Virus record (IMG/VR): IMGVR_UViG_3300021142_000023
Span: 12,453-76,452 of that record
Direction: 5' to 3' (one strand)
Length of the DNA stretch: 64,000 nucleotides
Origin: a virus
The position numbers and the translations under genes were made by a program. This document shows positions 5,643 through 64,000 of the stretch, piece after piece (position 1 is the stretch's first letter; the number at the start of each line of letters is the position of its first letter). The notes under the pieces are model-generated. The model was not told where the DNA came from and did not search any database. It was given only the letters and a program-made list of their open reading frames with translations.

Positions 5643-6083
5643 ATGGGTAAATTTACATCAACTAAAGTCATACCGCTAGGTAGCGCAGCCTTTCGTCAAC
5701 CCTACGCGAAAAGTCACTGCAAACTTGTTCATGGGTATCGTTTATCAGCTAAGTTCTGGTTTACATGCGAGCATCTCGATAATAATAATTGGGTAGTAGA
5801 TTTCGGTTCTCTTAAAGACCTTAAAATACGCCTCGAAGAGCTCTTCGATCATAAAACCGTTGTATGGGCTAAAGATCCTGAAATCGATACGTTTAAAGAC
5901 TTAGAGAAGCGTAGAATGATTGATCTAGTAGTACTTGAAGATGGTGTTGGTATTGAGCGTTTTGCTGAATTGTGTCACAACTTAGCTAATGAGTACGTTG
6001 ATGACCTTACTGATGGTCGTTGCTGGTGTACTCGAGTAGAAGTCTGGGAACATGAAGGTAATAGTGCAATTTACGAAGTTTAA
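5643..6083 (+). CDS. queD: 6-carboxy-5,6,7,8-tetrahydropterin synthase (QueD/PTPS family)
   Basis: SHCKLVHGY, WVVDFGSLK, FDHK, VEVWEH..NSAIY. Confidence 0.9.
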   Translation: MGKFTSTKVIPLGSAAFRQPYAKSHCKLVHGYRLSAKFWFTCEHLDNNNWVVDFGSLKDLKIRLEELFDHKTVVWAKDPEIDTFKDLEKRRMIDLVVLEDGVGIERFAELCHNLANEYVDDLTDGRCWCTRVEVWEHEGNSAIYEV

Positions 6084-6097
6084 TATATAATAGTTTT

Positions 6098-6904
6098 ATG
6101 TCTAATATTGATCCTAATACAACTTTATTCATTTCAGATGATTTTGTGTTCTACACATTAGAAGGCGAAGGCCGTTATATCGGTTACCCTTCAGTGTTTA
6201 TGAGAATGGCTATGTGTAACTTAACCTGTATTGGTTTTAAGAGCGAAGACTCACCAAACGGTTGTGATAGTTATGTTAGCTGGTCTAAGAAGAATAAAAT
6301 GACGTTTGAGGAAGTGGCTCAGTTGTTTGAGAAGAATGACTACCACGAGCGTCTAAAAGAAGGTGCATTACTTAAGTTAACTGGTGGAGAGCCTTTTATT
6401 CAGCAGAAGAACTTATTACTATTTGTTAAGTTTATTAGAGATCGTTGGGGTTTTGCTAACTATAGCAGAACTCTTACTACTGATGATATTGGTAAACCTA
6501 GATTGCATATCGACTTTGAAACTAACGGTACCATTATGCCGGGTGAAGAATGGTCTCGTCTAGGTGTACACGTAACATACACTACTTCACCTAAACTATC
6601 TAGTAACGGAGATCCTGCTGATAAACGTTATAAACCAGAAGTATTACGTTATTTGGCTATACATGATGCTTGTTTTAAGTTTGTAGCTAAACAAGAGTCA
6701 GACCTGAATGAAGTATTAGAAAACTATCTTAATAACCCTGAAGTAGCTGTACGTTCAGATCAAGTATGGATTATGCCTTGCTGTGGTAGCCGTAAAGAAC
6801 TACTAGAAGTTGGGCCTGCTGTGGCTGAACTATGTAAGAAATATAATTTTAAGTTCTCGAACAGAATGCACTTGCAAGTTTGGGACAAAGCCCTTAAAGT
6901 ATAA
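6098..6904 (+). CDS. queE: 7-carboxy-7-deazaguanine synthase (radical SAM)
   Basis: FYTLEGEG, CNLTC...CDS, LTGGEP, ETNGT, SPKL, KFV, R-HLQVW. Confidence 0.92.
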   Translation: MSNIDPNTTLFISDDFVFYTLEGEGRYIGYPSVFMRMAMCNLTCIGFKSEDSPNGCDSYVSWSKKNKMTFEEVAQLFEKNDYHERLKEGALLKLTGGEPFIQQKNLLLFVKFIRDRWGFANYSRTLTTDDIGKPRLHIDFETNGTIMPGEEWSRLGVHVTYTTSPKLSSNGDPADKRYKPEVLRYLAIHDACFKFVAKQESDLNEVLENYLNNPEVAVRSDQVWIMPCCGSRKELLEVGPAVAELCKKYNFKFSNRMHLQVWDKALKV

Positions 6905-6907
6905 TAT

Positions 6908-7069
6908 ATGAACGATATTCCTGATCCTAAAAAACATAAAAATATTAGCATTATTAAAAGCATTATCCGCATTATTGCGGGTACATGCCTTTGCTTCGGT
7001 GCCTTCTGGGTTACTGGTATATTGCTAATCGTAGCAGAAATACTCGGTATTGTTGAAGAAATGGTATAA
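6908..7069 (+). CDS. Small membrane protein (53 aa)
   Basis: Manual translation MNDIPDPKKHKNISIIKSIIRIIAGTCLCFGAFWVTGILLIVAEILGIVEEMV; fills the gap between queE and the next gene. Confidence 0.65.
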   Translation: MNDIPDPKKHKNISIIKSIIRIIAGTCLCFGAFWVTGILLIVAEILGIVEEMV

Positions 7070-7072
7070 CAT

Positions 7073-7336
7073 ATGAAACAAGAAATAAAATTCACATATA
7101 CGTTAGAGCATACTAATGACTATATTAACGTCGGTACACCTCGTAAAGTTGAAATCACTTTTGATGGTCAAGCAAGCTTAGAAGAACTATCAGAAGAGTT
7201 TAATGCTTTTGTTAAAGCTATAGGTTACAACCCGCCCGACAATTGCGTTCTTGATTGGGTAGACGTGGAAACCGGTCAACCACCTGAAGATGATGAGGTT
7301 GCCAATATCAGTATAAAGCGTAAATTTAAAAAATGA
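7073..7336 (+). CDS. Hypothetical protein
   Basis: ORF track, operon-like spacing. Confidence 0.6.
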   Translation: MKQEIKFTYTLEHTNDYINVGTPRKVEITFDGQASLEELSEEFNAFVKAIGYNPPDNCVLDWVDVETGQPPEDDEVANISIKRKFKK

Positions 7337-8049
7337 GTCACTCTAAACTTAGTAAAATAGGCGTTATTGGTACACAATGTGTCGGCAAGTCTACACTTGT
7401 TGATGATATGATATTACAGTGGCCTCAGCTTACTCGACCTGAAAAGTCGTACCGCGATCTTATTAAGAGTAAAAAACTTAAGATCAACAAAGAGGGTAAT
7501 AAAAAATCTCAAGAAACTATACTCAATTTTCTTGTAGATGAAGCGATGGCTAACTACGGTAAGAAGAAAATGATATTTGACCGTACGCCTATTGATAACT
7601 TAGTTTATTCTTTATGGCTTTTTGAAAAAGGCTTAGGAGACATTGACGAAGCATTCATTGATAGATGTGTTAAGCAAGTACGTGAAGCGGTTAAGTTTTA
7701 TTCTGTTATATTCTATATACCTTTAACTAAAGAAAACGACGTACTCCTTCAGACTAAAGAGAATAGAGATATTGATCCTGTTTATCGCGGGGAAATCGCT
7801 TTAATACTTGATGGCTTATTTAAGGCTTGGGAAAGTGGTAAGTCTGGGTTCTTTGATGCAGATGATTGTCCGCCTATCATACCTGTATACGGTACACCAT
7901 TAGAGCGTATCGCAATGATTAATCTTTATATTAACGATAAATGCGAGTTTTTCGGTGAAGAGGATTCCTTAATACAAAAAGATATAGTAGAACAGCAAAT
8001 GCTTGCTGATCAACTAGGTATTACGGATAAGAAACAGTTCAAATTATAG
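7333..8049 (+). CDS. P-loop nucleoside/nucleotide monophosphate kinase-like protein
   Basis: GTQCVGKST Walker A and FDRTPIDNLVYS (DR motif of dNMP/thymidylate kinase-like proteins). Confidence 0.7.
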   Translation: MSHSKLSKIGVIGTQCVGKSTLVDDMILQWPQLTRPEKSYRDLIKSKKLKINKEGNKKSQETILNFLVDEAMANYGKKKMIFDRTPIDNLVYSLWLFEKGLGDIDEAFIDRCVKQVREAVKFYSVIFYIPLTKENDVLLQTKENRDIDPVYRGEIALILDGLFKAWESGKSGFFDADDCPPIIPVYGTPLERIAMINLYINDKCEFFGEEDSLIQKDIVEQQMLADQLGITDKKQFKL

Positions 8050-8064
8050 TAAGTATTATATCCT

Positions 8065-8685
8065 ATGAAATTTGATGATGCTATTAACTATATTGCTGAA
8101 AACACTCTCGATTTAGAGATGGCTAAGCCAAAGAACCCTGAAATTGAAGAGCTCGTTAAAAAAGGTATACCTTACTGGAGAGCACGTCAGGACGTGCTAG
8201 CACGTCAGACGGTCAATAAGAGTGGGGCTAGTGCAGCACCTCAAGCAGCTCCTACTACTGAACCAGCTGGTATGAAGTATAAAGAGTTACCAGACACACT
8301 TAGGACTAAAGATGCAGTAGCAACTTATTTACAACACAACCCGGGTGCTACACCTGAAGAAGTGATGGCTGCTATTGGTTCTCAAAATTCAGAAGAAACA
8401 CCTCTTAACCTAGATCCAGAAGTTGTTAAAGCAGCAATTGCTGATGTACAAACCGGTGGTGGGGATGAGCAAGAGCCTGATCCAGAAGCTTTACGTAAAG
8501 CAGAACTTCAAGCAAAGTACGATAGAGTGCGTCAAGCACTATACAAGATGCATGGTTTCAAAACTAAAGGACGTCCAGGTAGAAAAGTAACTGCTGACGA
8601 GCCTGAAGAAGAACCAGGCGAGATTGATTACAATGAACCTAAGATCAATATGCGCGACGAGCCAGTTGACCCTACTGAGCTATAA
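8065..8685 (+). CDS. Hypothetical acidic protein, probable internal head protein
   Basis: MKFDDAINYIAEN; TAAGTA at 8050-8055. Confidence 0.6.
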   Translation: MKFDDAINYIAENTLDLEMAKPKNPEIEELVKKGIPYWRARQDVLARQTVNKSGASAAPQAAPTTEPAGMKYKELPDTLRTKDAVATYLQHNPGATPEEVMAAIGSQNSEETPLNLDPEVVKAAIADVQTGGGDEQEPDPEALRKAELQAKYDRVRQALYKMHGFKTKGRPGRKVTADEPEEEPGEIDYNEPKINMRDEPVDPTEL

Positions 8686-9130
8686 GATATTTTTCGGTAA
8701 GTACAATAAATTTCATACCTTTTTTAGCCGCGTAATCGCTCGCGGCTTTCCATTTGCACTGATTCTTGTGGTACATTAAGTGTTCGTACAAGACAGTGCT
8801 TTTTTTCTTTTTGTTTGATTGTACCGGTGGTAAAGTCTGGGAATGTGGTTTCAACTCTATCAAATATTTTTGTACAGTGCCATCTTTCTGCTTGATAGCT
8901 GCTATCAAATCTACATAATAGTTATGTACTTTATGGTCAACATCATTATAATAAGGCACTACTATACCTTCACTTGCCCAAGCAGTGACATTAGGGTTTT
9001 GATCAAAAAACAAAAAGAAATCTCTTTCTAATGCAGATCTGTATACAGGATTACTTGAACCCATATATTTATTTTTATTTATAGGTGAATAAATTCCCTG
9101 AATATACTTGTTATTTTTTGAAACACCCAT
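8672..9130 (-). CDS. gp4: Head completion nuclease (T4 gp4-like, TnsA-type)
   Basis: QGIYSPINKNKY.G...YRSALE...W.SE...PY...HNYYVD...IELKP..QT.PP...NQCKW.AA. Confidence 0.9.
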   Translation of the reverse strand: MGVSKNNKYIQGIYSPINKNKYMGSSNPVYRSALERDFFLFFDQNPNVTAWASEGIVVPYYNDVDHKVHNYYVDLIAAIKQKDGTVQKYLIELKPHSQTLPPVQSNKKKKSTVLYEHLMYHKNQCKWKAASDYAAKKGMKFIVLTEKYLIAQ

Positions 9131-9146
9131 ATACTATATTTACTTT

Positions 9147-10163
9147 ATGATTATTCCTCAAAACTTTATAATACAGACCTTCTTCCAATATGCGAAGAGA
9201 CCTGTATTTAGAAAGAATACTAACACGTATGCTGGGGAATGTCCATACTGTCATGAAGGTAAGAGTGCGGGTAAAAAACGTAGATTTTACTATATAGCAG
9301 AAGATGACCATTTGTTTTGTCATAACTGTAGTGAAAGCAAAAACGGATTAGAGTTTGTAAAAGATATGACTGGTTTATCTGTTAGTGAAATACTAGCAGA
9401 GTCTGGTAGTCATGCTGATACAGTTGAAGAGCTTATTAAGAAGTCAGATTTTTATAAGAAAGCTAATCCTAACCCTTTACCCTACGATAGTATTAACTTA
9501 TTTGACGGTAATCAGGTATCGTTTTATAAAGAGAACCAGGTAGTTAAGGATGCTCTTGAGTTTATTAACAAGAGACGCTTAAACACCGCTATTAATAAGC
9601 CTAAATCGCTTTGGATCAGCTTGACTGATATGACCCATAAAAATAGAGTGGTGTTTCCGTTTTATAATACAGAAGGTAAAATTATAACTTATCAATCGAG
9701 AGCTTTATACAAAGAAGACGAAGATAAAGCAAAGTACCTATCTAAGGTTAATAGTGATAAGGGAGTGTTTAACTTAGATAAAGTATCTTCTGATATAGAA
9801 TATATATTCCTACAGGAAGGACCTATTGATGCTATGTTTTTGCGTAATAGTGTAGCATTAGCTGGTATACACCCTACTCAAGAGCAGTTAGAATTGATAC
9901 GTAAGTCGTACCCTATGCACGAACTAGTTTATGTGCTAGATAATCAGTGGGCAGATAAGACTTCTTACAAAGTAACTAAAGAGCTCTTAGATAAAGGAGA
10001 GTCTGTATTTATTTGGCCTAAAGAATGTAGTCAATATAAAGATTTAAACGAACTCTGTACTAAACAAAAACAAGACGAAATACAATATACTAATATTGTA
10101 CAAAACACGTATAAAGGTATGAGAGGATTAATACAATACTCTCAGATCAAAAGGCCTGCTTAG
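9147..10163 (+). CDS. gp61: DNA primase (T4 gp61-like)
   Basis: Zn finger CPYC...CHNC, YQSR, KYL, EGPIDAMFL, LDN, KDLNE (TOPRIM). Confidence 0.9.
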   Translation: MIIPQNFIIQTFFQYAKRPVFRKNTNTYAGECPYCHEGKSAGKKRRFYYIAEDDHLFCHNCSESKNGLEFVKDMTGLSVSEILAESGSHADTVEELIKKSDFYKKANPNPLPYDSINLFDGNQVSFYKENQVVKDALEFINKRRLNTAINKPKSLWISLTDMTHKNRVVFPFYNTEGKIITYQSRALYKEDEDKAKYLSKVNSDKGVFNLDKVSSDIEYIFLQEGPIDAMFLRNSVALAGIHPTQEQLELIRKSYPMHELVYVLDNQWADKTSYKVTKELLDKGESVFIWPKECSQYKDLNELCTKQKQDEIQYTNIVQNTYKGMRGLIQYSQIKRPA

Positions 10164-11032
10164 CGAGTCGTAATCTTGCTAGTAGCGTCGTGAATCTTTT
10201 TACTAGAACTTGTAACAACTGTTTTAAATAGTTCTGCTAAGCCACGTAAGTTTTCAGCTAACTTAGTAATACGTTTTTCTTCACGGCGAACAATACCCTT
10301 AAAAGGAATAGAGTTGCGCATTTCTAATGCATTAATTTGAGCATTTAAACTATGCTCATCAGCACCATTAATGAATGTTGCCATGTCGTCAAGCTTCTTG
10401 ATCCACTCACGTGCTTTAGCAACGCCTTCTGTATCAAGCTTGAGAGCTGGGTTTGATGCTCCATCAAAAGCCTTAGGATCGGTTTTTGGGTCCAAGGATT
10501 TAGCCCAGCCAGCGTGGTCGTCGCCGCCTGCTTGAGCAGGGGCTGCCGGCGCCGGTGCTGGGGTTGGAGCTGGTTTAGCTTCTTGAAAATTTTCTTCTAA
10601 TGCCTCTTGAACGTTCTTTGCAAATTGTGCCATGTGACGGGTATGAGGATTCTTACTGTGTACAGCTTTGTTTAACTTTGCAGCAGGAATCTTTTCGCCT
10701 TGCGGCACGTGTAAAGCTTTATGTAAACCGCCTTTTTTAACATGTGCGTGTTGAATCCATTTCGGGTCGTTTTCTTTAACAGGAAATTCCTCGCCACCTA
10801 ACTCAAAAGTATCTTTACCAGCTTCTTTAGCTTTTTGATCTTTAAAATGTAAAACCCCGGCACCTTCTTTGTCTAAGACTTTACCTTTTTCCTTGACTGG
10901 AAATGTTTCATCGCCTAACTTAAATGAGTCTTTACCAGCTTTTTTAGCCTCTACATCCTTTAAATGCATAATACCAGCGTTACTCTCTTTGCCCAAGGAT
11001 TCATTAAAAGCGGTTATAAACTGATTCTTCAT
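10160..11032 (-). CDS. Hypothetical modular protein, probable internal head protein
   Basis: MKNQFITAFNES start 6 nt after TAAATA; internal duplication AKKAGKDSFKLGDETFPVKE / AKEAGKDTFELGGEEFPVKE. Confidence 0.65.
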   Translation of the reverse strand: MKNQFITAFNESLGKESNAGIMHLKDVEAKKAGKDSFKLGDETFPVKEKGKVLDKEGAGVLHFKDQKAKEAGKDTFELGGEEFPVKENDPKWIQHAHVKKGGLHKALHVPQGEKIPAAKLNKAVHSKNPHTRHMAQFAKNVQEALEENFQEAKPAPTPAPAPAAPAQAGGDDHAGWAKSLDPKTDPKAFDGASNPALKLDTEGVAKAREWIKKLDDMATFINGADEHSLNAQINALEMRNSIPFKGIVRREEKRITKLAENLRGLAELFKTVVTSSSKKIHDATSKITTR

Positions 11033-11089
11033 ATACATTATTTACTACTTTTCTATTGAATTTCTATTGATCTATATTATTATAACCAT

Positions 11090-11833
11090 ATGTCAAAAGC
11101 ATTAGTCATATTATCAGGTGGAATGGACAGCTCTATATTACTTCACTATGTAACTAAGAAGCTTAATTACGATGAAGTATATGCTATTACGTTTAACTAC
11201 GGGCAACGGATTATTCGAGAAATCGACTGTGCAAAGTATCAGGTAGATGCTTGCAAAGTTAAAGAACATAAGATAGTAGATATGGATTTCTTTAGAAGTA
11301 TATCCACTATGTCTGCTTTAACCAATACCAATCTAAATATTCCAAAAGCTAAAGATGATATTGGTAATGCACAGCCTTTAAGCTATGTTCCTTTTAGAAA
11401 TTTACTTCTACTTACAACGGCTGCTGGTTGGGCTGAATCTATTGGGGCTTCAGACCTGTTTTACGGTGCAGTACAAACTGACGACTTCTCGGGTTACTGG
11501 GACTGCACGTCGTTATTCCTTAATAAGGTTAACGAACTATACAGTCTTAACCGTAAAAACGTTATTAAAGTTAATGCACCTTTTATGCAGTTCTCTAAAG
11601 AAGAGGTTGTCACAACAGGTATTGAACTAGGTATTAACTTTAAGCAAACCCATACATGTTACGAGGGTAAAGAAGTAGCATGCGGAGAGTGTGTATCATG
11701 TTCAGCAAGATTAAAAGCTTTTATAGATAATAAAATAATAGACCCAATACCTTATGCAAAAGAAGTACCTTGGTCTAAATACGATTGTAAACCTTATACT
11801 AAATCAACATATGTGCGGAATAGCGGGCAGTAA
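11090..11833 (+). CDS. queC: 7-cyano-7-deazaguanine synthase
   Basis: LSGGMDS, FNYGQR, YVPFRN, GYWDC, TCY....CGECVSC..R. Confidence 0.95.
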   Translation: MSKALVILSGGMDSSILLHYVTKKLNYDEVYAITFNYGQRIIREIDCAKYQVDACKVKEHKIVDMDFFRSISTMSALTNTNLNIPKAKDDIGNAQPLSYVPFRNLLLLTTAAGWAESIGASDLFYGAVQTDDFSGYWDCTSLFLNKVNELYSLNRKNVIKVNAPFMQFSKEEVVTTGIELGINFKQTHTCYEGKEVACGECVSCSARLKAFIDNKIIDPIPYAKEVPWSKYDCKPYTKSTYVRNSGQ

Positions 11834-12467
11834 ATACAGAACACAAGCGTTTGAGCATTACAAAGATAATCTCAATAGAGGTTATTATAGCTCTGGTGCG
11901 TTAGTAATAGACACTAACGGTCAGTATACTACTAAAAAAATATTAGGCACGTTTAAGGAACCTATAGACTGTTTTAATTCACCAGGTATACACACACGCG
12001 GTCAATATTTTTTGTACCATTCTCGCGGACCCACTGTTGAAACAAGAGAGTTTGAGACAGAAAACAATCATCCGTTTTTTTACGGTGATTGGGTAGTTGC
12101 ACATAACGGTATTATTAGCAATTTTGAGAGTTTATGTAGAGAGTACTTTCCAGACGAAGATTTTACCGGCAGAACCGATAGCTGTATTATTCCTCGTATG
12201 CTAGAAATTAAACCGCAAGTATCAGATGCTATTGAAGCACTTAAAGGTACGTATGCAATCTGGGCTTTTAATACAAAATATAAAAAGACTTGGTTAGCTA
12301 AGAGTGGTAGTACTTTATTTGCAAATACTAAAACAGGGGATTTTTCATCTACAGAATTTGACGAAAGTACACCTTTAAATGAAGGTATTATATATGCTGT
12401 ACAGGATTATAATAGTATAGTGCCGGCTGGAAGATTTAAGCACAAATCTCCATACTTCATATTCTAA
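11811..12467 (+). CDS. Class II (Ntn) glutamine amidotransferase
   Basis: MCGIAG N-terminal Cys nucleophile, NRG..SSG, HSRGPT, NNHPF, AHNGII, TDS; overlaps the queC stop. Confidence 0.88.
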   Translation: MCGIAGSKYRTQAFEHYKDNLNRGYYSSGALVIDTNGQYTTKKILGTFKEPIDCFNSPGIHTRGQYFLYHSRGPTVETREFETENNHPFFYGDWVVAHNGIISNFESLCREYFPDEDFTGRTDSCIIPRMLEIKPQVSDAIEALKGTYAIWAFNTKYKKTWLAKSGSTLFANTKTGDFSSTEFDESTPLNEGIIYAVQDYNSIVPAGRFKHKSPYFIF

Positions 12468-12475
12468 ATATATGC

Positions 12476-12844: not shown

Positions 12845-12886
12845 TAGTAGATTTATTTTTATAAACCTTTATAATGTAAGCACTAT

Positions 12887-13147
12887 ATGAAAGGCTTACA
12901 GTTAAATACAGAAGAGAAACAACTACTTGTAGAATCACTACTGTTTACGGCTAGTTGTGATGTGTGTTCAGATCACACCGCAGCACATCGTAAGCGTATA
13001 CTCGATCTTGCAGAAAAAATAAATGACAAGAATATAAAGCTGCATAATATTTTTATCTATAAAACTGGTATTAGTGATGACGTAACACTAGACGAGATTG
13101 CTAAGAAGTTTCCTAACGTTCCTCGCGAAACTATCATACAAGACTAA
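12887..13147 (+). CDS. Hypothetical protein
   Basis: ORF track. Confidence 0.55.
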   Translation: MKGLQLNTEEKQLLVESLLFTASCDVCSDHTAAHRKRILDLAEKINDKNIKLHNIFIYKTGISDDVTLDEIAKKFPNVPRETIIQD

Positions 13148-13833
13148 TGAACGTTTATATTGGTTTTTGTTCTACTGCTACCTCCTACTCTAATCTCAAG
13201 GAGAGAAGTAAATTCACTATCGTTAATAGTGAAGGCTTAGAAAATGTTAAAATCGCAAATGGGGCTTTTAATAATAAGACTGCTATTGCTAAGGTTTATA
13301 ACTCTTTTATTAACTCCCTTAAAGACGAAGACTGTATATTAGTACTAGCACATGATGATGTTGTTATTACTGATGAAAAATGGATAGAAAAACTAAAACA
13401 AGCCTTAAAACAATATGACGTGGTGGGTTTAGCAGGCGGGGTTAACCCTAAAATACAAGCACCTGCATTGTGGCACTTAATGTGTGCTAAGGAAGACTTA
13501 AAAGGCGGTGTTAACCATGTAGATATGGGTAAAAACAGTGTATTTAACACCACATTTGGTAAAAATGGTAGAGTGGCTCTTTTAGATGGTTTGTTCTTAG
13601 CATTTAACCCTAAAAAAATATCTGAAGTTGGTGTTAACTTTGATGAAACATGTCCATCTAAATTCCACTTCTACGACCTAGACTTTAGTTTACAATGTAA
13701 TAAAGCTAAACTTAAACTTGGTACCACTAACATTGGTGTTACACATGCTTCCCCAGGTCTACAAAACTATTCAGACGAATTTAGACTTGGACAAGACTGG
13801 TTTATTAACAAAGCAAGAACTGGACAATATTAA
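13147..13833 (+). CDS. Glycosyltransferase, GT-A fold (GT2-like)
   Basis: IAKVYN, VLAHDDV (DxD-like), VVGLAG, LDGLFLA, FDE...FHFYDLDFS. Confidence 0.75.
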   Translation: MNVYIGFCSTATSYSNLKERSKFTIVNSEGLENVKIANGAFNNKTAIAKVYNSFINSLKDEDCILVLAHDDVVITDEKWIEKLKQALKQYDVVGLAGGVNPKIQAPALWHLMCAKEDLKGGVNHVDMGKNSVFNTTFGKNGRVALLDGLFLAFNPKKISEVGVNFDETCPSKFHFYDLDFSLQCNKAKLKLGTTNIGVTHASPGLQNYSDEFRLGQDWFINKARTGQY

Positions 13834-13854
13834 TTTTTATAATACAATACTACT

Positions 13855-14436
13855 ATGATTATCAAAGACCAAACTATCTATAACGGCGATTTTATTCACA
13901 AGCGTTTTGCTTACAAGTATTTTAGAGATAAGACTCTAGCTGTGGGTAATATTGTTAGCTATGTTGCACCCGTAGAAGTTACATTAAATCTTATCGATTT
14001 AGAAGATTCTTTAGAAAAAGACTATATCTATAGTGAATCTATGATTAACTTCTGTTGGGAAATACCTAACTTAGATCCATTCGGTGCAGTTTGTTTTCAG
14101 CGTTTGTTTAATACAGCAATTGCTAATACTTTACATACGTATATTAAGAAGCCTATCGAAATGAAGGGCGACGACTTGATTGTTCACGGGGAATTTACAC
14201 AAGGCGGTGTAGTACAACAAAAAGGTAAAGCTTCGGTTAGTATTACGTACTCTAAAGACAACGTAGCTATTGGGCATACCGGTATTAATATTACTGCTGG
14301 TAAACAAGCACCTGCTTTTGCGTATAGCACAAACTTAACACCTGAGCAAGCAGAGAAGTTTCAGTTACAAGTGCATCAGCAATTTTACCAGATGGTAGAT
14401 AACATCTTTGTTGCTACTTCTAAGGTGATTGTTTGA
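13855..14436 (+). CDS. DUF366-like protein (biotin/lipoate-ligase-like fold)
   Basis: YNG..I...FAY, IDLED....YIYS..M.NF..E, FQRL, KGDDL, K.SVSI, HTGINI pattern recalled from the DUF366 family. Confidence 0.7.
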   Translation: MIIKDQTIYNGDFIHKRFAYKYFRDKTLAVGNIVSYVAPVEVTLNLIDLEDSLEKDYIYSESMINFCWEIPNLDPFGAVCFQRLFNTAIANTLHTYIKKPIEMKGDDLIVHGEFTQGGVVQQKGKASVSITYSKDNVAIGHTGINITAGKQAPAFAYSTNLTPEQAEKFQLQVHQQFYQMVDNIFVATSKVIV

Positions 14437-15269: not shown

Positions 15270-15274
15270 TATGT

Positions 15275-37549: not shown

Positions 37550-37963
37550 ATGACAAAACTAACTAACTATAATCCTAGCACATATCGTAATCCATTCTCA
37601 CTCTTAGATACTGTCTTAGAGAGGGAATTTAACCATCCTTTCTTTTGGGGGGATGTTAGCCGTACAGGAGACACTGTTCGGTTTAAAGAAGGGGATGAAC
37701 TCACCGTAGAGGTGGATCTTCCTGGTGTATCCAAAGATAAAACAAACGTAACTGTTGAAGGTAGAGTAGTAACGATTGAAGGTACTCGTAAAGTGATCCA
37801 TAAAGGTGGCACACAAGAAGAGACATTCAGCCGTAGCTTTACCGTTGGCAACTCGTTTAACTTGGATAAAGCTAAAGCCGTACAACAAGACGGCGTTCTT
37901 ACCTTAACCTTTCCAAAAAATAAGGTAGAGAACGGCGGCAAGAAAGTTATTGATATTAACTGA
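37550..37963 (+). CDS. Small heat-shock protein (Hsp20)
   Basis: VDLPGV.K..V.VEG..VTIEG.R, FSRSF, A...DGVLTLTFPK. Confidence 0.9.
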   Translation: MTKLTNYNPSTYRNPFSLLDTVLEREFNHPFFWGDVSRTGDTVRFKEGDELTVEVDLPGVSKDKTNVTVEGRVVTIEGTRKVIHKGGTQEETFSRSFTVGNSFNLDKAKAVQQDGVLTLTFPKNKVENGGKKVIDIN

Positions 37964-37982
37964 TTGCTGTTGGCAAGGACAC

Positions 37983-56438: not shown

Positions 56439-56459
56439 AGATAGATATATTTACTTATA

Positions 56460-57239: not shown

Positions 57240-57267
57240 ATTCACTATAATTACTATGTAATAAAAT

Positions 57268-58083
57268 ATGTACAAGAGATTTTTTGCATTTGGTTGCTCG
57301 TTTACCGATTATATGTGGACGACGTGGGCAGATATAGTAGCAGGAGCATATCCTGGCATTGAATACCATAACCTAGGCAAAGGAGGTGGAAGCAATCAAG
57401 TAATACTATATAAAATGATGGAAATGGATCAGTTGTATAACTTCAACCCCGAGGACCTAATCATTGTACAGTGGACGGCACCAGCAAGAGAAGCTTTCTG
57501 GAATGGCAAAAATTGGGTGGCCAGTGGCAGTGTTTATAATAACCCATACTACGACGATGCATACGTCGAAAGATATACCTCTCAAATAAACTACCTGTAT
57601 AGGGATTTATCTATTGTTAAAGTTATACAGGGGTTCATGAAACTAAAAGGATGCACGTTTCATCAAATATCTATGTCCCCTATTCTTGATTTGGAGCTCT
57701 ATGGAGGTAGATTAGAAGATATATTACCAGAACAAAAACAGTACCTACTAGACCTCTATAAACCAGTAATAGATCAAATAAAACCAAGTTATATGGAAGT
57801 AGTGTTTGAGGGTAACTGGAGAAATAAACTTCCTCGGCCTAAGTTCAGGCTTTCTACCACTAAAGATATATGTGATGATTGTCACCCCTCTCCCTTAGAG
57901 CACTTAAAATACGTTGAACAAATATTACCATTTGTACCCATTACTCCAGATTTAAGAAATAATGTACAAATAGATAATGCTAGAGTTATGAGTACAGTTA
58001 ATGAGTATGTACAACGTTACTGTAACCCACCACTTAACGGCACGTTACCCTTTACCCGGGGATGTAGTAAATCAGAGTTTTAG
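57268..58083 (+). CDS. SGNH-hydrolase-like protein
   Basis: FGCSFT, NLGKGGGSN, IVQWT...RE, DCHPSPLEH. Confidence 0.6.
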   Translation: MYKRFFAFGCSFTDYMWTTWADIVAGAYPGIEYHNLGKGGGSNQVILYKMMEMDQLYNFNPEDLIIVQWTAPAREAFWNGKNWVASGSVYNNPYYDDAYVERYTSQINYLYRDLSIVKVIQGFMKLKGCTFHQISMSPILDLELYGGRLEDILPEQKQYLLDLYKPVIDQIKPSYMEVVFEGNWRNKLPRPKFRLSTTKDICDDCHPSPLEHLKYVEQILPFVPITPDLRNNVQIDNARVMSTVNEYVQRYCNPPLNGTLPFTRGCSKSEF

Positions 58084-58095
58084 TTCTGAAATCCG

Positions 58096-58221
58096 GGGCT
58101 TATATATGTATTTGGACAGAAAAAAATTTGCGCGAAAAAAATTTGAAAACTAGGCTCTCGGGATTTTTGAAGAAAGGGCTTATATAGGATTTGGGTTTAA
58201 AAAATTTGGCAAAAGTTTGGC
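58096..58221. repeat. Intergenic imperfect direct repeats
   Basis: gggcttatata at 58096 and 58176, each followed by atttgg; aaaaaatttg at 58121, 58136 and 58199. Confidence 0.6.
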
Positions 58222-58333
58222 ATGCACGTATATACACGTGTTTTGTTGATATCTATATTCAACCAATTTCTGCGCTTAGGTGGTGTATTTAGCTTGCACT
58301 GTTATACACCACCATATATATTATACCACTCTA

Positions 58334-58696
58334 TTAGCCGCGCCATCTTTCTAAGCGCTGCTTCATCCATCCTATCTCGCTAGCAGACGCTCCTGCCTCT
58401 TCTAATGCTTTCACTTTAGCTTCATAATGCTTTACATACTCTTCATTCGACATATGCTTAGTTGATAAAGATGGAGCTAGCTTCACTCCTTCTTCTAAGA
58501 TGCTCTTCATTAGATCTACTTCACCATCTTTCAATAAGCTGCTCTTTACTTTAGGCTTCTTATTAGCACCTCTGCTTACATATGCTTTCTGGAATGCTTC
58601 TAATGATCCATACTCTTTGATCTTAGCATCAATGATTGATTGGTTCGACCACTTAACGGTCTTACCGGTTACATTACACGTTAGTATTATACTCAT
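58334..58696 (-). CDS. Hypothetical early protein
   Basis: ORF track; promoter TTGCCA-17-CATTAT at 58747-58719. Confidence 0.65.
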   Translation of the reverse strand: MSIILTCNVTGKTVKWSNQSIIDAKIKEYGSLEAFQKAYVSRGANKKPKVKSSLLKDGEVDLMKSILEEGVKLAPSLSTKHMSNEEYVKHYEAKVKALEEAGASASEIGWMKQRLERWRG

Positions 58697-58750
58697 ATTG
58701 GTTCCTTATTGTTATATGATAATGGATTACTTTATGATAAATGGCAACTC

Positions 58751-58990
58751 TTAAATTGTATTTTTATACCAATCATCTTTCTTTATCTTCTTAAAGTTCT
58801 TTACAAATTCATTTATATCATATCCACAATCATTATCACCCATCCAGCCTATAAACTCTTCATATTGTTCTTCCGACAACCACAATACCATTTGTGTTAG
58901 AAAGTTATCAATCATCCATTCATTTGTGGATACTTCCTTAAGACACTTAATGGTCTTAAGTCTATGCTTTACCTGTTTATTAAGTTTCAT
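58751..58990 (-). CDS. Hypothetical early protein
   Basis: ORF with its own promoter, ATG 6 nt after the -10 box. Confidence 0.65.
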   Translation of the reverse strand: MKLNKQVKHRLKTIKCLKEVSTNEWMIDNFLTQMVLWLSEEQYEEFIGWMGDNDCGYDINEFVKNFKKIKKDDWYKNTI

Positions 58991-59030
58991 ACCAATAGTA
59001 TGAGTACTTAAATGATATATGGCAACTGTA

Positions 59031-59339
59031 TTAGCCCTCAGAAGAACCTCTAGAATACTCTGCTAAGTTACCATAAAAATCGCCTATGTACGCTTCATAT
59101 TTTGAGACGTTTAATTGATTCTTATTGCGTACTTGTGCATATAGCTTTTGAAAGTTTGGATCATTTGACAGGGCCTCAATTGCTTTAAAGATGTCATTGA
59201 TCTTACTTGCATAGGCCTGTACAGAGGCGCCAGCAGCTGGAGCAGGTGCTGGTGCACGTGCTGGAGCTTCACTCATAGCAGGTGTAATATTCATGGTTTC
59301 AAGTAACTGAACAAGTTTGTTAAAGCTTTTATCACGCAT
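59031..59339 (-). CDS. Hypothetical protein, probable internal head protein
   Basis: MRDKSFNKLVQLLE, 7 nt after TAAGTA; PAPA linker. Confidence 0.6.
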   Translation of the reverse strand: MRDKSFNKLVQLLETMNITPAMSEAPARAPAPAPAAGASVQAYASKINDIFKAIEALSNDPNFQKLYAQVRNKNQLNVSKYEAYIGDFYGNLAEYSRGSSEG

Positions 59340-59374
59340 AATGTAATACTTATTCAATCCCGTTACATTTTCTA

Positions 59375-59593
59375 TCAGTTCTTTCCAGTTAATTTGAGCT
59401 GGATGTGTTCCATGAGCTCTCTCAATATCAGCTCATAGCTCTGCTTGTGACCTGTAACATACGCTTGTCTGGCTTGAATGAGTAACACTTGCTGTTCAAT
59501 TGTATTCACAAGTGTAACAGGTACATTGTGGTTGGTAATGCTTGATAGCTGGTCATGAAGGTGCATCAAGCTTTCGTCAAATCTATTGATCAT
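59375..59593 (-). CDS. Hypothetical protein
   Basis: ORF track. Confidence 0.55.
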   Translation of the reverse strand: MINRFDESLMHLHDQLSSITNHNVPVTLVNTIEQQVLLIQARQAYVTGHKQSYELILRELMEHIQLKLTGKN

Positions 59594-59594
59594 A

Positions 59595-59849
59595 TTAGTA
59601 ATGGTCTTTATGTCTTACATCATTTACATCATCTGAAGTGCAATCATATGTGGATGTATTTTCATATGATATGGTTACAGGATTACCTTCTTCAATACTG
59701 GTAATGTGATTGACTTGCTGAATGACAGCATCAATCAAGCCATCAGCTTCTATGATTTCATTAGCCAGGTCATATGACTCAGCTGTGCAATATACTGTAT
59801 CACTTGCTGTAAAGATAATGTATGTTTGTTTTAAGTCTCTCATTTTCAT
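59595..59849 (-). CDS. Hypothetical early protein
   Basis: ORF; ATG 6 nt after CATAAT. Confidence 0.6.
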   Translation of the reverse strand: MKMRDLKQTYIIFTASDTVYCTAESYDLANEIIEADGLIDAVIQQVNHITSIEEGNPVTISYENTSTYDCTSDDVNDVRHKDHY

Positions 59850-59897
59850 AATACTATTATGGTAACTTAATTGATTAAGTGCAACTATAATGTTCTC

Positions 59898-59965
59898 TCC
59901 TGGAATATTTCTTCTCCTGGAATATTTCTTCTCCTGGAATGAAAATTATCCTGGAATGAAAATTA
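59898..59965. repeat. 4 x 17-bp tandem repeat, each unit containing CCTGG
   Basis: tcctggaatatttcttc x2, then tcctggaatgaaaatta x2. Confidence 0.9.
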
Positions 59966-60175
59966 TACTGTCACACAACATTCTACTTCATCTCTCACCT
60001 CAATACAATTCCACTTTTGTACTACACAATCACCTTCAATAATTGGGTGGTCAACTAAATAGCCTGTCTGGCCTTCTTTCCTTACCTCCATTACAGTCCC
60101 TACCTTCAAGTCAATCCAGGTTGGGAATTCAGCTGCCAGGAATGTATTAGTTGGTTTGGTTATCATTATTTTCAT
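59963..60175 (-). CDS. Hypothetical early protein
   Basis: ORF; ATG 6 nt after CATTAT. Confidence 0.6.
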   Translation of the reverse strand: MKIMITKPTNTFLAAEFPTWIDLKVGTVMEVRKEGQTGYLVDHPIIEGDCVVQKWNCIEVRDEVECCVTV

Positions 60176-60213
60176 AAGACAATAATGGTAACTTATTGTG
60201 TCAAGTGCAAGCC

Positions 60214-60387
60214 TTAAGTTATCTTAGTATCTTCACCCACATATGTTAAGTGCTCATACATTACACTTGTATACACCTTATTGAGTGTTTGGACATCATA
60301 CAGAATGGTGCCATCCTGTAGTTCGAGTATCTCTATCACTTGTCCTACTTTGTTATTGTATTTGACTAGATCGCCTATTAGGTACAT
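60214..60387 (-). CDS. Hypothetical early protein (57 aa)
   Basis: Manual translation MYLIGDLVKYNNKVGQVIEILELQDGTILYDVQTLNKVYTSVMYEHLTYVGEDTKIT; own promoter. Confidence 0.55.
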   Translation of the reverse strand: MYLIGDLVKYNNKVGQVIEILELQDGTILYDVQTLNKVYTSVMYEHLTYVGEDTKIT

Positions 60388-60426
60388 ACATATGAGTATG
60401 TAACTTATCAGGTATAGTGCAACTAC

Positions 60427-61299
60427 TTAAATGTTATGTAACAGTATTTCTACAGCATCCTTAGCAGTATGAGTACCATTATCCTGTTTCTTTCTTCTAC
60501 CAGCTGTATATGTTACCTCGTACTTGTGTAACTGTAGCTTACCTTGGTTGTCTGTATAGAAAGTGTCTCCGGTATCTCTACCACAAAACATCACTTTATG
60601 TTTGGTAGAAACATTTGAACAATACTTCATTAGTTCCACTTGCTTGTCATCTCCAAACACTTGCCCGTAGGCTGTAAAGCTATCCCTATAGGGTGGATCC
60701 ATAAAGTAAAAGGCTGTACCTTCTACCTTATCAACACATCCCTTCCAATCACCACAATAAATGTCTACCTTTTGTAAGAGTTTGTTCCACTCATACACAT
60801 TCTCTTTATCATATACAAAGAATGTTTCGTTCAATAGTCCGCAAGGTGTGGCAAACCTACCTTTACTCTCTTTCGTGGCCTGCCATATCCCGTTAAATGA
60901 GGTACGCATCAGGAAGTACAAGTGAGCTGCCTCCACCACCTTATTCCACTTGGAGTAATCAGTCCCATACTCTTTACGTATCTTGTAATAGTACTCCTTA
61001 CGTCCCTCTTTGGATAAAGGGATGTACTCTTGTTGTAACCCGTCTAATGTCTTTAAAAATGTCTTAACATCTGTCTTGATAGAGGTGTACAAGTTAACAA
61101 TCTCTTCATTAATATCATTTAATATGAACTTCTTTACATCTGGATTGTTCTCATACACATACAACATCATAGCACCACCACCGAAGAACGGCTCTACATA
61201 TGTATCATACCCACTTAGTGGTATGGTAGGTGTTTCCAGGTACTTGGGGATCATCTTGTTCTTACCCCCAGCCCATTTGTATAGTGGCTTAATTTTCAT
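60427..61299 (-). CDS. dam: DNA adenine methyltransferase, Dam/D12 family
   Basis: KWAGGK, YVEPFFGGGA, LNDIN, FNG, DPPY. Confidence 0.9.
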   Translation of the reverse strand: MKIKPLYKWAGGKNKMIPKYLETPTIPLSGYDTYVEPFFGGGAMMLYVYENNPDVKKFILNDINEEIVNLYTSIKTDVKTFLKTLDGLQQEYIPLSKEGRKEYYYKIRKEYGTDYSKWNKVVEAAHLYFLMRTSFNGIWQATKESKGRFATPCGLLNETFFVYDKENVYEWNKLLQKVDIYCGDWKGCVDKVEGTAFYFMDPPYRDSFTAYGQVFGDDKQVELMKYCSNVSTKHKVMFCGRDTGDTFYTDNQGKLQLHKYEVTYTAGRRKKQDNGTHTAKDAVEILLHNI

Positions 61300-61340
61300 T
61301 CACTACATTATAACATACCTATTGGGTAAGTCAAGCTCTT

Positions 61341-61463
61341 TCAATCGTAGAAACCATTTTCCCTCAACCACTTGATGGTTCTGGAATGATCCCATAACAG
61401 GTACAGAATACCTAGTAATGGTACTACCAAGATACCTAATACAACCAGGATTATCTTAATCAT
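61341..61463 (-). CDS. Small membrane protein (40 aa)
   Basis: Manual translation MIKIILVVLGILVVPLLGILYLLWDHSRTIKWLRENGFYD; ATGA overlap with the upstream gene. Confidence 0.5.
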   Translation of the reverse strand: MIKIILVVLGILVVPLLGILYLLWDHSRTIKWLRENGFYD

Positions 61464-61645
61464 TTCTTGTTCTTTACAAATTGATCATACAGGCTCTTGG
61501 TAGCTGGAGTGGCTTGACCAACCGCAACACTTCCTGGAGGTGTATTGTTGGTAGGGGTGCCCTTGGCTATGTTATAGATCTCCCATACCTTCCAGTTAAG
61601 ACTCTCCAGTTCTTTAATGATCTTTTCGGCTTGTTGTTCTGTCAT
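61460..61645 (-). CDS. Hypothetical protein
   Basis: ORF track, overlapping start/stop. Confidence 0.55.
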   Translation of the reverse strand: MTEQQAEKIIKELESLNWKVWEIYNIAKGTPTNNTPPGSVAVGQATPATKSLYDQFVKNKK

Positions 61646-61881
61646 TTTATTTTCCTTTTCTTTGGTACTCTCACCTCATCATTTATTTGTGTAAACTGGT
61701 CTTCTTGTAACAACTCCACTTGCCCGGTTGTATCGCTTATGTACTTGTTGTAAAGGGTGCTGGTGAGCTTGAGAGCTATATCAGCAATATCCTCCCGATC
61801 TTTGGTTGAGTTGGTAGGCCACTTATCCACTAAAGCAGCTGCCACAGATACAAAGATCTTATGTTTGAGTTTGTTGTTCAT
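61642..61881 (-). CDS. Hypothetical protein
   Basis: ORF track. Confidence 0.55.
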   Translation of the reverse strand: MNNKLKHKIFVSVAAALVDKWPTNSTKDREDIADIALKLTSTLYNKYISDTTGQVELLQEDQFTQINDEVRVPKKRKIK

Positions 61882-62488
61882 TTAAATATATTACCTCTTT
61901 ATCTGGTAACTGCAACTCTTCTTTTGGAAGATATGGTTTAATGTCTTCAAATGTGATGGTTAAGCCTAGATGCTGTTTAAAGATATTGAATAGCTCCTCG
62001 TCATTAAATGCTGGAGCATAATGGAAGGTGGTATTGTCTGGATATATGTTACCCATGGTAGTACCTAAGTTATTGAGTACTTTGCCCTCTTGAGCACCTG
62101 GTCCAGTCATAAATGTTACATACTTGTTTGTAGTACCCTTCAATAGTAGCTCGTAGCATATGCTAAAGTTCTTGCTCCATCTTTCGTGGGCATTACCAAA
62201 CACATCCTGGTGCTTAGCTTCAAAGATAGCTAGGATCTTTCTAGTACCATCTGGTTGTTTGGTGAACCACATACCACCATCTGGCTTCACACCCAACCCA
62301 ACCAGTTTACCATTAAACTCCGGTAAGGGTCTCTTTACAGATGATCCACTTACATATGTGAGTGTGGTGTTACCGGTCACCTTTAAATGAGTCCTAATGG
62401 CTTCAGCCATATACTTAACGCTATCATCTAGCTTAGTTGATTCTATGCTAGCTGCTGTTGTGCCTGGTTGTATACCTCTAGTACTCAT
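61859..62488 (-). CDS. EcoRI/MunI-like type II restriction endonuclease
   Basis: KPDGG...IFEAKHQ...GNAHERWSKN (EcoRI: KPDGG...AEAKHQ...GNAIERSHKN; MunI: GNAHER). Confidence 0.75.
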   Translation of the reverse strand: MSTRGIQPGTTAASIESTKLDDSVKYMAEAIRTHLKVTGNTTLTYVSGSSVKRPLPEFNGKLVGLGVKPDGGMWFTKQPDGTRKILAIFEAKHQDVFGNAHERWSKNFSICYELLLKGTTNKYVTFMTGPGAQEGKVLNNLGTTMGNIYPDNTTFHYAPAFNDEELFNIFKQHLGLTITFEDIKPYLPKEELQLPDKEVIYLNEQQTQT

Positions 62489-62532
62489 TTGTATAGATAC
62501 TATTATCGTATCTTTTCGAGTAAAATCAACAT

Positions 62533-62573
62533 AAAAAGAGCGGTAGGGTGAAAATAAAAAAGCCCTACCGCTC
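62533..62573 (-). terminator. Terminator hairpin downstream of the AP2-like gene
   Basis: 11-bp stem gagcggtaggg/ccctaccgctc with an A5 tract at 62533-62537 (U-tract on the minus strand). Confidence 0.7.
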
Positions 62574-62617
62574 TCGTGTTGATATATTATGAATAACCCC
62601 CTTGTGGGGGAAATGGA

Positions 62618-62875
62618 TTAGTTACGGACGATACGACGACCGAAGAACTCAGTCTTTGATGGACGTCCCATACGGCGGCATGCCTTACGGAATTGAGTTG
62701 GTGAAGCATGCAAGCGTAGGTAGCGAGCGTACTCAGTAGCACGTGCAATAGCGGTCTCAAGACCACCAAACTTTGTTACTAAGAACCGGCGGGTACGGCG
62801 TACACCATCACGCATTACATTGACTTGAACACTGATAGCCTTGCGGCCTTGTTTTTGAATATATAGGTTTTTCAT
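62618..62875 (-). CDS. Small basic protein, AP2-like DNA-binding domain
   Basis: Three beta strands, then RRFLVTKFGGLETAIARATEYAR (AP2 pattern F---K(Y/F)G---A---A---R). Confidence 0.55.
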   Translation of the reverse strand: MKNLYIQKQGRKAISVQVNVMRDGVRRTRRFLVTKFGGLETAIARATEYARYLRLHASPTQFRKACRRMGRPSKTEFFGRRIVRN

Positions 62876-63042
62876 ATCTTTATGATGTTATTATTATCGT
62901 TTACTTTACTAAAAAGTCAAGCACTATTTGTTATTATCTTTGTTATTTGTTGTAAGGTTGTGTTCCTAATTGATAAGACAAGTATGGTTACTTTTACCCA
63001 AACGGTCAAGCTTTATTTTTAACACGCGTCCTTTTTTCTAAC

Positions 63043-63056
63043 ACACTACGTAGTGT
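63043..63056. repeat. 14-bp perfect palindrome
   Basis: acactacgtagtgt. Confidence 0.8.
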
Positions 63057-63305
63057 TTTTTATTTAAAAAAAGTACCTTATTATGCGAACTTTATTAATA
63101 AACGGCAAGTTTATTTTTATTAAAATATAATAAAAAATATTAAAAATATATTATTTTTTTATTGCAAAAAATAATAAAATAAATATTATATATATATAAA
63201 TTATTTAAAAAATATTATTAAAACTTTTATAAAAATATTAATAAAAAAATATATTATAAAAAATATAATATTAATAATTAATTTAAATAATAATAAAATA
63301 ATAAT

Positions 63306-63527
63306 ATGAAGAATAATAAATTAAAAATATATAAAAATAAAGATTTAGGTATTTATAAAATTAATAATTATAAGATAAATGATGAAGTATTATTAAAAAA
63401 TAATGATGTATTGAGGATTGTAGGTTTTAGAGAGGAAGATGGGGTTATGATGGTAGATGGGTATTTTAATAGTGATGATTGTGGGGGTAGTGAGGAGTTT
63501 AATAATATAGTAAGTTTATATAATTAA
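63306..63527 (+). CDS. Hypothetical early protein encoded without cytosine
   Basis: 73 aa; no C in the coding strand; protein lacks A, P, T, Q and H. Confidence 0.7.
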   Translation: MKNNKLKIYKNKDLGIYKINNYKINDEVLLKNNDVLRIVGFREEDGVMMVDGYFNSDDCGGSEEFNNIVSLYN

Positions 63528-63537
63528 TAAATTAATT

Positions 63538-63578
63538 AATTTTAGTGTTGATTTAAATAATAAAAGTAGATATATTAA
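63538..63578 (+). promoter_or_regulatory. Early promoter, copy 1 of a 41-bp exact repeat
   Basis: aattttagtgTTGATTtaaataataaaagtagaTATATTaa; 17-nt spacer; ATG 5 nt after the -10 box. Confidence 0.75.
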
Positions 63579-63581
63579 AAT

Positions 63582-63818
63582 ATGAGTAATAATAAAAGAG
63601 AAGTTAAATTAATAAATTGTAATTTATTAGATGTTAAAAATAATAAATTAATTAAAATGAAGGGTTATGTAAAAATTGTAAATTATGATAATAAAGAATA
63701 TTTTGAGGTTAATTTAAGAGATGGAGATTTTGAAAATGAGAAGTATATTTTAATAGGAAGTAATGAGAAGTTTAAGATTTTTGATAAAGATGATGATGGT
63801 GGTTATTTTGTGATTTAA
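63582..63818 (+). CDS. Hypothetical early protein encoded without cytosine
   Basis: 78 aa; no C in the coding strand; lacks A, P, T, Q and H. Confidence 0.7.
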   Translation: MSNNKREVKLINCNLLDVKNNKLIKMKGYVKIVNYDNKEYFEVNLRDGDFENEKYILIGSNEKFKIFDKDDDGGYFVI

Positions 63819-63835
63819 ATATATTAAGTAGTTTG

Positions 63836-63876
63836 AATTTTAGTGTTGATTTAAATAATAAAAGTAGATATATTAA
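63836..63876 (+). promoter_or_regulatory. Early promoter, copy 2 of the 41-bp exact repeat
   Basis: Identical to 63538-63578; ATG 6 nt after the -10 box. Confidence 0.75.
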
Positions 63877-63880
63877 TAAA

Positions 63881-64000
63881 ATGAAAAATAATAAAATAGA
63901 TAAAGAAATAGATAATTTTTATAATAATTTAAATATATTATTAAAAGATATAAAGAGTGAAGTAGATAGATGTAAAAAAATATTAGAAAATAATAATTAT
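63881..64000 (+). CDS. Hypothetical early protein encoded without cytosine (partial)
   Basis: Manual translation MKNNKIDKEIDNFYNNLNILLKDIKSEVDRCKKILENNNY..., open to the window end. Confidence 0.65.
   Translation, partial: MKNNKIDKEIDNFYNNLNILLKDIKSEVDRCKKILENNNY

Follow-up and report, generated by a model that had tools for sequence, protein, structure and literature searches.

At the right end of a 64,000-nucleotide (nt) stretch of viral DNA lies a short block of genes whose coding strand contains no C. The stretch, here called the window, comprises bases 12453-76452 of IMGVR_UViG_3300021142_000023 (G0), a linear IMG/VR contig of 76,452 bp that CheckV rates as 36% complete. Matches in PHROGs to a portal protein, major head protein, baseplate wedge, tail sheath stabiliser, helicase and ribonucleotide reductase identify the source as a T4-like myovirus. 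No isolate has a capsid protein more than 37% identical to that of G0, and searches with pieces of the window by megablast, blastn and tblastn gave no close match among cultured phages. The right end of the window is present in at least 20 metagenome runs of freshwater or lake origin, dated 2016-2020 and filed under 20 study codes; there was no RNA run among the listed runs that contain it. In the related contig G056, the promoter and leader region shows a TTG ... TAATTTTG motif and an A-rich leader lacking a Shine-Dalgarno sequence, features which together give a Bacteroidota-type look. G0 is an uncultured freshwater T4-like phage, probably with a host in the Bacteroidota. The features of the right end are as follows, where YC stands for a pyrimidine followed by C, that is, TC or CC.

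58334-62875, minus strand: leftward array of small early-type genes of ordinary composition, serving as an internal control
63077-64000, plus strand: zone without TC or CC, 924 nt against a longest YC-free gap of about 106 nt expected, reaching the contig end
63225-64000, plus strand: completely C-free stretch (template strand without G), 776 nt, reaching the contig end
63306-63527, plus strand: cassette gene c1, 73 amino acids, with no Ala, Pro, His, Gln or Thr
63538-63578, plus strand: 41-nt cassette-boundary repeat, copy 1, with promoter-like TTGATT-17-TATATT
63582-63818, plus strand: cassette gene c2, 78 amino acids, predicted all-beta
63836-63876, plus strand: 41-nt cassette-boundary repeat, copy 2 (exact), with promoter-like TTGATT-17-TATATT
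63881-64000, plus strand: cassette gene c3, truncated at the contig end

A preliminary description of this DNA had reported an early block whose template strand lacks G, and the 776-nt C-free stretch at 63225-64000 is that block. The second-longest C-free run in the window is 58 nt, and by our own arithmetic, with C at 18.3% of the contig, the chance of a 776-nt run is about 1e-68. Between 63090 and 63224 there are five C's, each preceded by A or G. The two complete genes, c1 and c2, have no C and no YC and retain G at 19-22%, so the block is not a case of plain AT richness. The same description had cautioned that the leftward early-type genes are ordinary in composition, and this is correct, C being 8-25% across 58334-62875. 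No description of natural C-free or cytosine-less phage genes was found in the literature searches made. When the C-free-run pattern was sought on 50 capsid-bearing fragments, which do not cover early regions, only the known relative was recovered. Ahead of the first cassette, at 63100-63305, lie about 200 nt of nearly pure A/T, with no G for 143 nt and with many short inverted repeats; this stretch may be promoter DNA that is bent or resembles an UP element, or else an unwinding element.

The block was compared with L002, which is 94% identical to G0, with the 140.7-kb contig G056, and with G2, a more distant relative than L002. Two relatives lack the que genes: G1, which is complete and circular and is also without dpdA, and G3, which is 54% complete. 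The cultured phages compared were Flavobacterium phage immuto (grown on Flavobacterium sp. LMO8), CP220, phiST, Tenacibaculum phage PTm1 and Cellulophaga phage phi18:1. In G0 the 41-nt repeat precedes both c2 and c3 and brings its TTGATT-17-TATATT element, identified by motif match only, to within a few bases of the ATG. The repeat core, ATTTTAGTGTTGATTTAA, was found again at two cassette junctions of G056; three further matches of this 18-nt core, in unrelated contigs, were set aside as chance. In G056, c2 is at 37736-37969, well within the contig; next comes a different C-free gene of 51 amino acids, and beyond it the genes are ordinary. Both junctions have the same 40-nt element, and the unrelated 51-amino-acid gene occupies c3's place between the same repeats; c1 was not found in G056. 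No inverted repeat with G-C pairs was seen at the cassette junctions.

Three contigs (G0, L002 and G2) terminate within the C-free block. In G056 the cassette is assembled within the contig, so the block is no genome end; with units internal in G062 as well, a genome terminus was ruled out as the reason why contigs stop here. Repeats and strain-variable content would instead explain why assembly breaks here. The 74 c2 clusters in databases sit mostly on contigs of 0.5-3 kb. Between G0 and G056 c2 is 91.5% identical (96% in a separate comparison), the genomes are about 74% identical where they can be aligned, and the genomic neighbourhood of the gene differs. Between G0 and L002 divergence is 1.5% in the block and 12% in the flanks; c1 is shared with L002, and the 466 aligned nt of block have seven substitutions, none of them to C. 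Taken together, these comparisons show in the block a small array of mobile early-gene cassettes that lie between recombining 40-nt repeats and are swapped among related phages. The C-free proteins of G0, G2/G062, G066 and immuto have no convincing homology to one another. An AlphaFold2 model of c2, built from a 30-sequence alignment, is all-beta and of low confidence (predicted local distance difference test score 58). The cassette products, tiny proteins made from about 15 kinds of amino acid, presumably serve host takeover.

Two neighbouring features were recorded. Diverging from the block in G0 is a gene at 62618-62875 (minus strand) for a very basic 85-amino-acid protein with a weak match to the AP2 DNA-binding domain (E 5.5e-4); the L002 copy is 94% identical. 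In G056 a GC-rich, apparently structured element of 85 nt (L220:17500-17585, equivalent to G056:C1:37500-37585) lies within an AT-rich spacer just upstream of the cassette array and may be a small RNA or a terminator.

The c2 family provides the clearest view of how the composition is maintained. The five amino acids whose codons require C are Ala, Pro, His, Gln and Thr, and across 74 c2 variants of 76-100% identity the 5,585 residues include no Ala, no Pro, one His, seven Gln and two Thr. The near absence of these residues from so many variants shows that the C-free state is kept by selection. Among variant states that a single nucleotide change would give, 6 of 48 need C, against 32% expected (P = 0.0014). 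Alignment of the block between G0 and G056 gave three T-to-C changes among 42 substitutions, the last part, past c2, not being homologous; the substitution counts in the block alone (0 of 7 and 3 of 42 to C) are too few to prove selection.

In relatives the rule proved to be narrower than a ban on C. Coding-strand runs without YC measure 924 nt in G0, 574 in G056, 511 in G2, 427 in immuto, 423 in G066 and 338 in G062, whereas the longest such gaps expected by chance are 88-146 nt. The relatives' units carry 5-11 C's each, and their C-free runs are shorter, yet no TC or CC occurs across the YC-free run. Of 28 residual C's in the units, 27 follow A or G, one is in CC and none is in TC; when non-coding residual C's are taken alone, 12 of 13 follow a purine. 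Genome-wide, by contrast, 42-45% of C's follow a pyrimidine (P about 1e-4 for the contrast, by our own arithmetic). Coding strands are in general YC-poor in these phages, as in immuto, where the value is 0.063 versus 0.120 for the opposite strand. The contrast between YC and purine-C is predicted neither by a model in which template G is costly nor by one in which cytidine triphosphate (CTP) is limiting. The constraint is selection against TC and CC on the message strand, with each unit nearly or wholly C-free.

The constraint also has a direction and an extent. The depleted strand is the coding strand in all of the approximately eight unrelated cassette gene families, which come from four lineages, and these genomes contain no gene with a comparable lack of G on the coding strand. 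In G2 the YC-free zone starts at the -10 element, the last pyrimidine-C being immediately upstream of it; the immuto zone takes in 33 nt ahead of the gp143 start codon, the gene itself and 37 nt beyond its stop. Polarity and zone boundaries together indicate that the constraint follows the transcribed unit, which argues against a purely double-strand DNA cause such as restriction-site avoidance.

The window also contains genes for a 7-deazaguanine pathway, as the preliminary description had stated; QueD, QueE, QueC, an amidotransferase, a P-loop protein (there called a kinase) and a DUF366 protein are all present.

5643-6083, plus strand: QueD, 6-carboxytetrahydropterin synthase family (PF01242, 2.8e-16), 57% identical to the G2 copy
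6098-6904, plus strand: QueE-like radical SAM enzyme (TIGR03963 at 5e-13, under the curated cut-off; BLASTP 2e-12 to immuto QueE)
7333-8049, plus strand: P-loop AAA_28 protein, by profile match, the earlier 'kinase', also in que-less G1
11090-11833, plus strand: QueC (PF06508, 2e-62)
11754-12467, plus strand: class-II glutamine amidotransferase adjoining QueC, its true start probably downstream of 11754
13855-14436, plus strand: DUF366 protein (PF04017, 1e-20), 63% identical in que-positive G2, with none in que-less G1

The occurrence of the P-loop gene in que-less G1 means that it does not belong to the pathway alone. A search for FolE in the 76-kb fragment, itself only 36% complete by CheckV, gave none; the relative G2 has it. 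Just outside the window, on the same contig, the first gene codes for a DpdA3 protein (G000:C1:136-942, minus strand). Along its entire length it shares 48.9% identity with the immuto DNA guanine transglycosylase (E 4e-77); identity is 42.6% to the CP220 protein and 25% to that of phiST, and the G056 DpdA3 is 88% identical to the G0 protein. The Pfam TGT model (PF01702) misses DpdA3 in G0, as expected for a distant subfamily; it was found with the phiST and immuto proteins. In cultured phages with DpdA3, G is fully replaced, by dADG in CP220, dDG in phiST and fdPreQ1 in immuto (Hutinet/Cui et al. 2023, PMC10516641). Given the DpdA3 gene of G0 and the full replacement in these cultured phages, heavy substitution of G in G0 DNA is plausible.

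Several observations concern these genes. The DpdA3 gene (136-942) overlaps by 4 bases the 853-amino-acid open reading frame upstream of it (939-3500, also minus strand), and the two may be translationally coupled. A family-2 glycosyltransferase gene at window positions 13147-13833 adjoins DUF366 and is present as well in que-less G1 and G3. DUF366 occurs only in the que-positive genomes, and its sole homolog from a cultured phage is in Microcystis phage MaAM05 (29%); it may contribute to the synthesis of a 7-deazaguanine derivative not yet described. DUF366 and the amidotransferase together hint at a base that is not fdPreQ1. In G063 the DpdA3 match is in two pieces about 120 nt apart (G063:C1:96083-96976), and the QueC genes of G065 (G065:C1:19803-20522) and G067 (G067:C1:130621-131343) each have one in-frame TAA; insertion, pathway decay or recoding may account for these interruptions.

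The preliminary description had proposed that modified G and the C-free genes form one system. In agreement with that proposal, every strong C-free unit found sits in a DpdA3 genome (G0, G056, G2, G062, G066 and immuto), and no strong unit was found in G1, G3, PTm1 or phi18:1, which are DpdA3- and que-negative. Among ten DpdA3-positive genomes at least 84% complete, however, only G2, G062, G066 and immuto have a strong unit; G061, G067, G068, G069, CP220 and phiST have none. The comparison of 4/10 with 0/3 complete DpdA3-less genomes is without statistical weight, and because que and DpdA3 are almost universal in the clade, co-occurrence is confounded by ancestry and the test has no power. By capsid, the closest relative of que-less G1 is G061 (83%), which has DpdA3 and no block, so the absence of the block from G1 is not attributable to loss of DpdA3. 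Nor is the block a necessary companion of full replacement, since CP220 and phiST, with measured 100% replacement, are without it. Within a genome only one to three early genes are C-free, and neighbours with similar promoters are ordinary. So far as sequence comparisons can speak, they do not show that G modification and C-free genes need each other. The proposed association is partly supported: none of the DpdA3-less genomes compared has the block, and six of the ten near-complete DpdA3 genomes lack it too. The argument that strand polarity fits G modification likewise stood only in part: the coding strand is always the one without C, but it keeps its G or is enriched in it, and the duplex would therefore still be modified.

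We tentatively favour, while holding it somewhat less than probable, the explanation that nascent cassette RNA escapes a host factor which reads YC; the likeliest such factor is the termination factor Rho. The primary sites of Rho bind the YC dinucleotide. The match between this dinucleotide and the one banned from the units is the reason for preferring a reading of nascent RNA to a G-free template. The nascent RNA of a YC-free unit would offer no grip to a factor that reads pyrimidine-C on single-stranded RNA, and with Rho as the best candidate reader, the first messages would be completed whether or not ribosomes trail the polymerase. The DpdA3-type module would then be something that the clade carries alongside the C-free units, not their cause. 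Dierksheide et al. 2026 (Nat Microbiol, PMC13323073) show that Rho obstructs foreign genes, propose the same for phage genes, and show that purine-rich, C-poor sense strands avoid it and are required if foreign genes are to be expressed; Cardinale et al. 2008, as cited in PMC13323073, found that Rho silences foreign DNA. The sense-strand composition that avoids Rho, YC-poor and with G at least equal to C, holds in c1 and c2, and the units are YC-free in five further genomes. The bias described in PMC13323073 resembles that of the block in that it affects the coding strand, depletes C and pyrimidines, keeps G and follows the direction of transcription. It differs in being statistical and genome-wide, whereas here the depletion is absolute, is confined to a few short early units and costs them five amino acids. 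Several points weigh against Rho. The early-type genes beside the block are not depleted. Rho needs several YC's spread across tens of nucleotides, and zero YC over 400-900 nt exceeds what simple avoidance of Rho utilization (rut) sites should require. Depletion of all C is about ten-fold even after purines, as a template-G or CTP model predicts, and all strong cases are in DpdA3 genomes, with 0/3 complete DpdA3-less genomes having one. Finally, the YC contrast could come in part from the amino acids that return first, as Thr (ACN) and Ala (GCN) bring purine-C.

The system put forward in the preliminary description is that all G is replaced by a 7-deazaguanine derivative, with host RNA polymerase hindered or the template sensed, and that a few bootstrap genes on a G-free template are expressed first. 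In its fullest form, unmodified host RNA polymerase would read this small, mobile set straight away, and the products would then fit the cell to modified DNA. We regard this system as a legitimate but doubtful hypothesis. The DpdA3 gene on the same contig, the full replacement of G in immuto, CP220 and phiST (PMC10516641) and the restriction of strong units to DpdA3 genomes, with none in G1, G3, PTm1 or phi18:1, speak for this system, and polarity and unit boundaries are consistent with reading of a template. What it does not accommodate is the ordinary composition of the adjoining early-type genes and the avoidance of YC specifically, the units of relatives accepting 5-11 C's on condition that a purine precedes. 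The block is missing from six of the ten near-complete DpdA3 genomes, including CP220 and phiST, and the near-universality of DpdA3 in the clade leaves ancestry as a confounder. The parts of these phages that were seen contain no RNA polymerase gene; as is established for T4, the host enzyme should read all their other genes from the modified DNA. The coding strand is itself G-rich, and the promoter-like TTG (-35-type) element has a G. A further point against the system is that substituents at the 7-position project into the major groove and do not disturb Watson-Crick pairing. No relevant report on transcription of 7-deazaguanine templates was found in the literature searches made. A combined version may be considered, in which modified G slows the polymerase and so exposes nascent RNA to Rho, with both template-G pauses and YC sites removed from the units.

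A zero-level ban suits an agent harmful at a single site better than it suits Rho, and the C-less strand is at once the RNA and the non-template DNA strand. Evasion of some other enzyme with activity on single-stranded C or YC would fit both facts, and we regard it as rather unlikely. Candidates are an abortive-infection or toxin ribonuclease, a TC/CC-preferring single-stranded DNA cytosine deaminase acting on the exposed non-template strand, a DarT-like modifier of single-stranded DNA, and viperin-made ddhCTP, whose chain termination would be escaped by messages needing no CTP; the three G0 genes indeed require none. Against this, we know of no such C- or YC-acting factor for these hosts, the sequences point to no particular enzyme, and the ddhCTP or CTP-shortage version leaves the tolerance of purine-C in relatives unexplained. 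Selection for unstructured messages seems quite improbable. Without C there are no G-C pairs, and an unfolded mRNA might be translated well in a host that does without Shine-Dalgarno pairing; predicted folding is -0.04 to -0.09 kcal per nt for three C-free genes versus -0.14 to -0.26 for 16 others, and the G056 leader is A-rich and has no Shine-Dalgarno sequence. An open start region would suffice for that purpose, yet the ban spans whole units, including 3' ends and spacers; the YC-specific pattern is left unexplained, and other early genes are ordinary in composition. A constraint on double-stranded DNA, with no palindromes containing G:C and hence escape from restriction, or an assembly or sequencing artefact, is scarcely credible. 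The block has no G:C palindromes by construction, and three contigs terminate in it. Restriction avoidance, however, predicts no link to gene direction and no exception for purine-C, whereas polarity is 8/8 and the residual C's are context-specific, and the phage already has a DNA modification system. An artefact is countered by internal assembly of the cassette in G056 and G062, by the at least 20 runs that hold the stretch and by the 74 protein variants that keep the composition. Internal assemblies, polarity, residual-C context and the 74 variants together largely refute both versions.

Synthetic G-less and C-less cassettes are used for in vitro transcription. Like those cassettes, for which such use is described in PMC8969151, the genes of the block are copied with three nucleotides; the synthetic ones are laboratory-made and non-coding, whereas the block consists of natural, translated and selected genes. 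In genetic organization the nearest parallel is with the promoter-early stem-loop (PeSL) cassettes of the T4-type phages RB49 and phi1 (Arbiol et al. 2010, PMC2839356). PeSL cassettes too occupy a variable region of a T4-type genome and consist of small early genes that are not essential, each behind a repeated early-promoter element, and their repeats mediate gene swapping between phages, as gene replacement between G0 and G056 was seen here. The differences are that the G0 repeat has no stem-loop terminator, G-C pairs being impossible without C, and that PeSL genes are of ordinary composition. With immuto, CP220 and phiST (PMC10516641), G0 shares DpdA3 plus QueD, QueE and QueC, and the G0 lineage adds the separate amidotransferase and DUF366. 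Immuto has one nearly C-free early gene, gp143, and CP220 and phiST have none; C-free genes are not described in PMC10516641.

Three further loci in the window were noted. At 60427-62488 (minus strand) a Dam-family DNA methyltransferase gene (phrog_56, 6e-58) lies about 0.6 kb from the gene for a 209-amino-acid protein with a weak match to EcoRI endonuclease (PF02963, E 0.012; motif EAKHQ...GNAHER), and in this part of the early region the two may serve the phage as a restriction-modification or anti-host nuclease pair. At 8672-9130 (minus strand), with the queDE operon on one side and the primase gene on the other, is a gene for a protein with a TnsA-like endonuclease N-terminal domain (PF08722, 1.4e-15); its homologs in G1, G2, G3 and PTm1 are non-syntenic, which suggests a mobile, homing-type endonuclease. 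At 59896-59957, just upstream of a leftward early-type gene, there are three tandem 17-nt repeats (TCTCCTGGAATATTTCT), the first two identical and the third divergent, which may be an operator or an iteron.

In practical terms, the cassettes break metagenome assemblies, which matters for obtaining complete genomes of an abundant freshwater phage group. More broadly, natural three-letter genes encoding proteins built from about 15 kinds of amino acid demonstrate that pressure at the nucleotide level can fully override protein composition. The signature is precise, with no pyrimidine-C from transcription start to end, and there is a cultured carrier in immuto, so that the cause is experimentally approachable. 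If modified G is the cause, these genes would provide evidence, for the first time, of a cost of 7-deazaguanine DNA in transcription that phages have to work around. If Rho is the cause, nature would so far offer no sharper read-out of what Rho recognizes, and these genes would be an instance of phage escape from the Rho-based silencing of foreign DNA.

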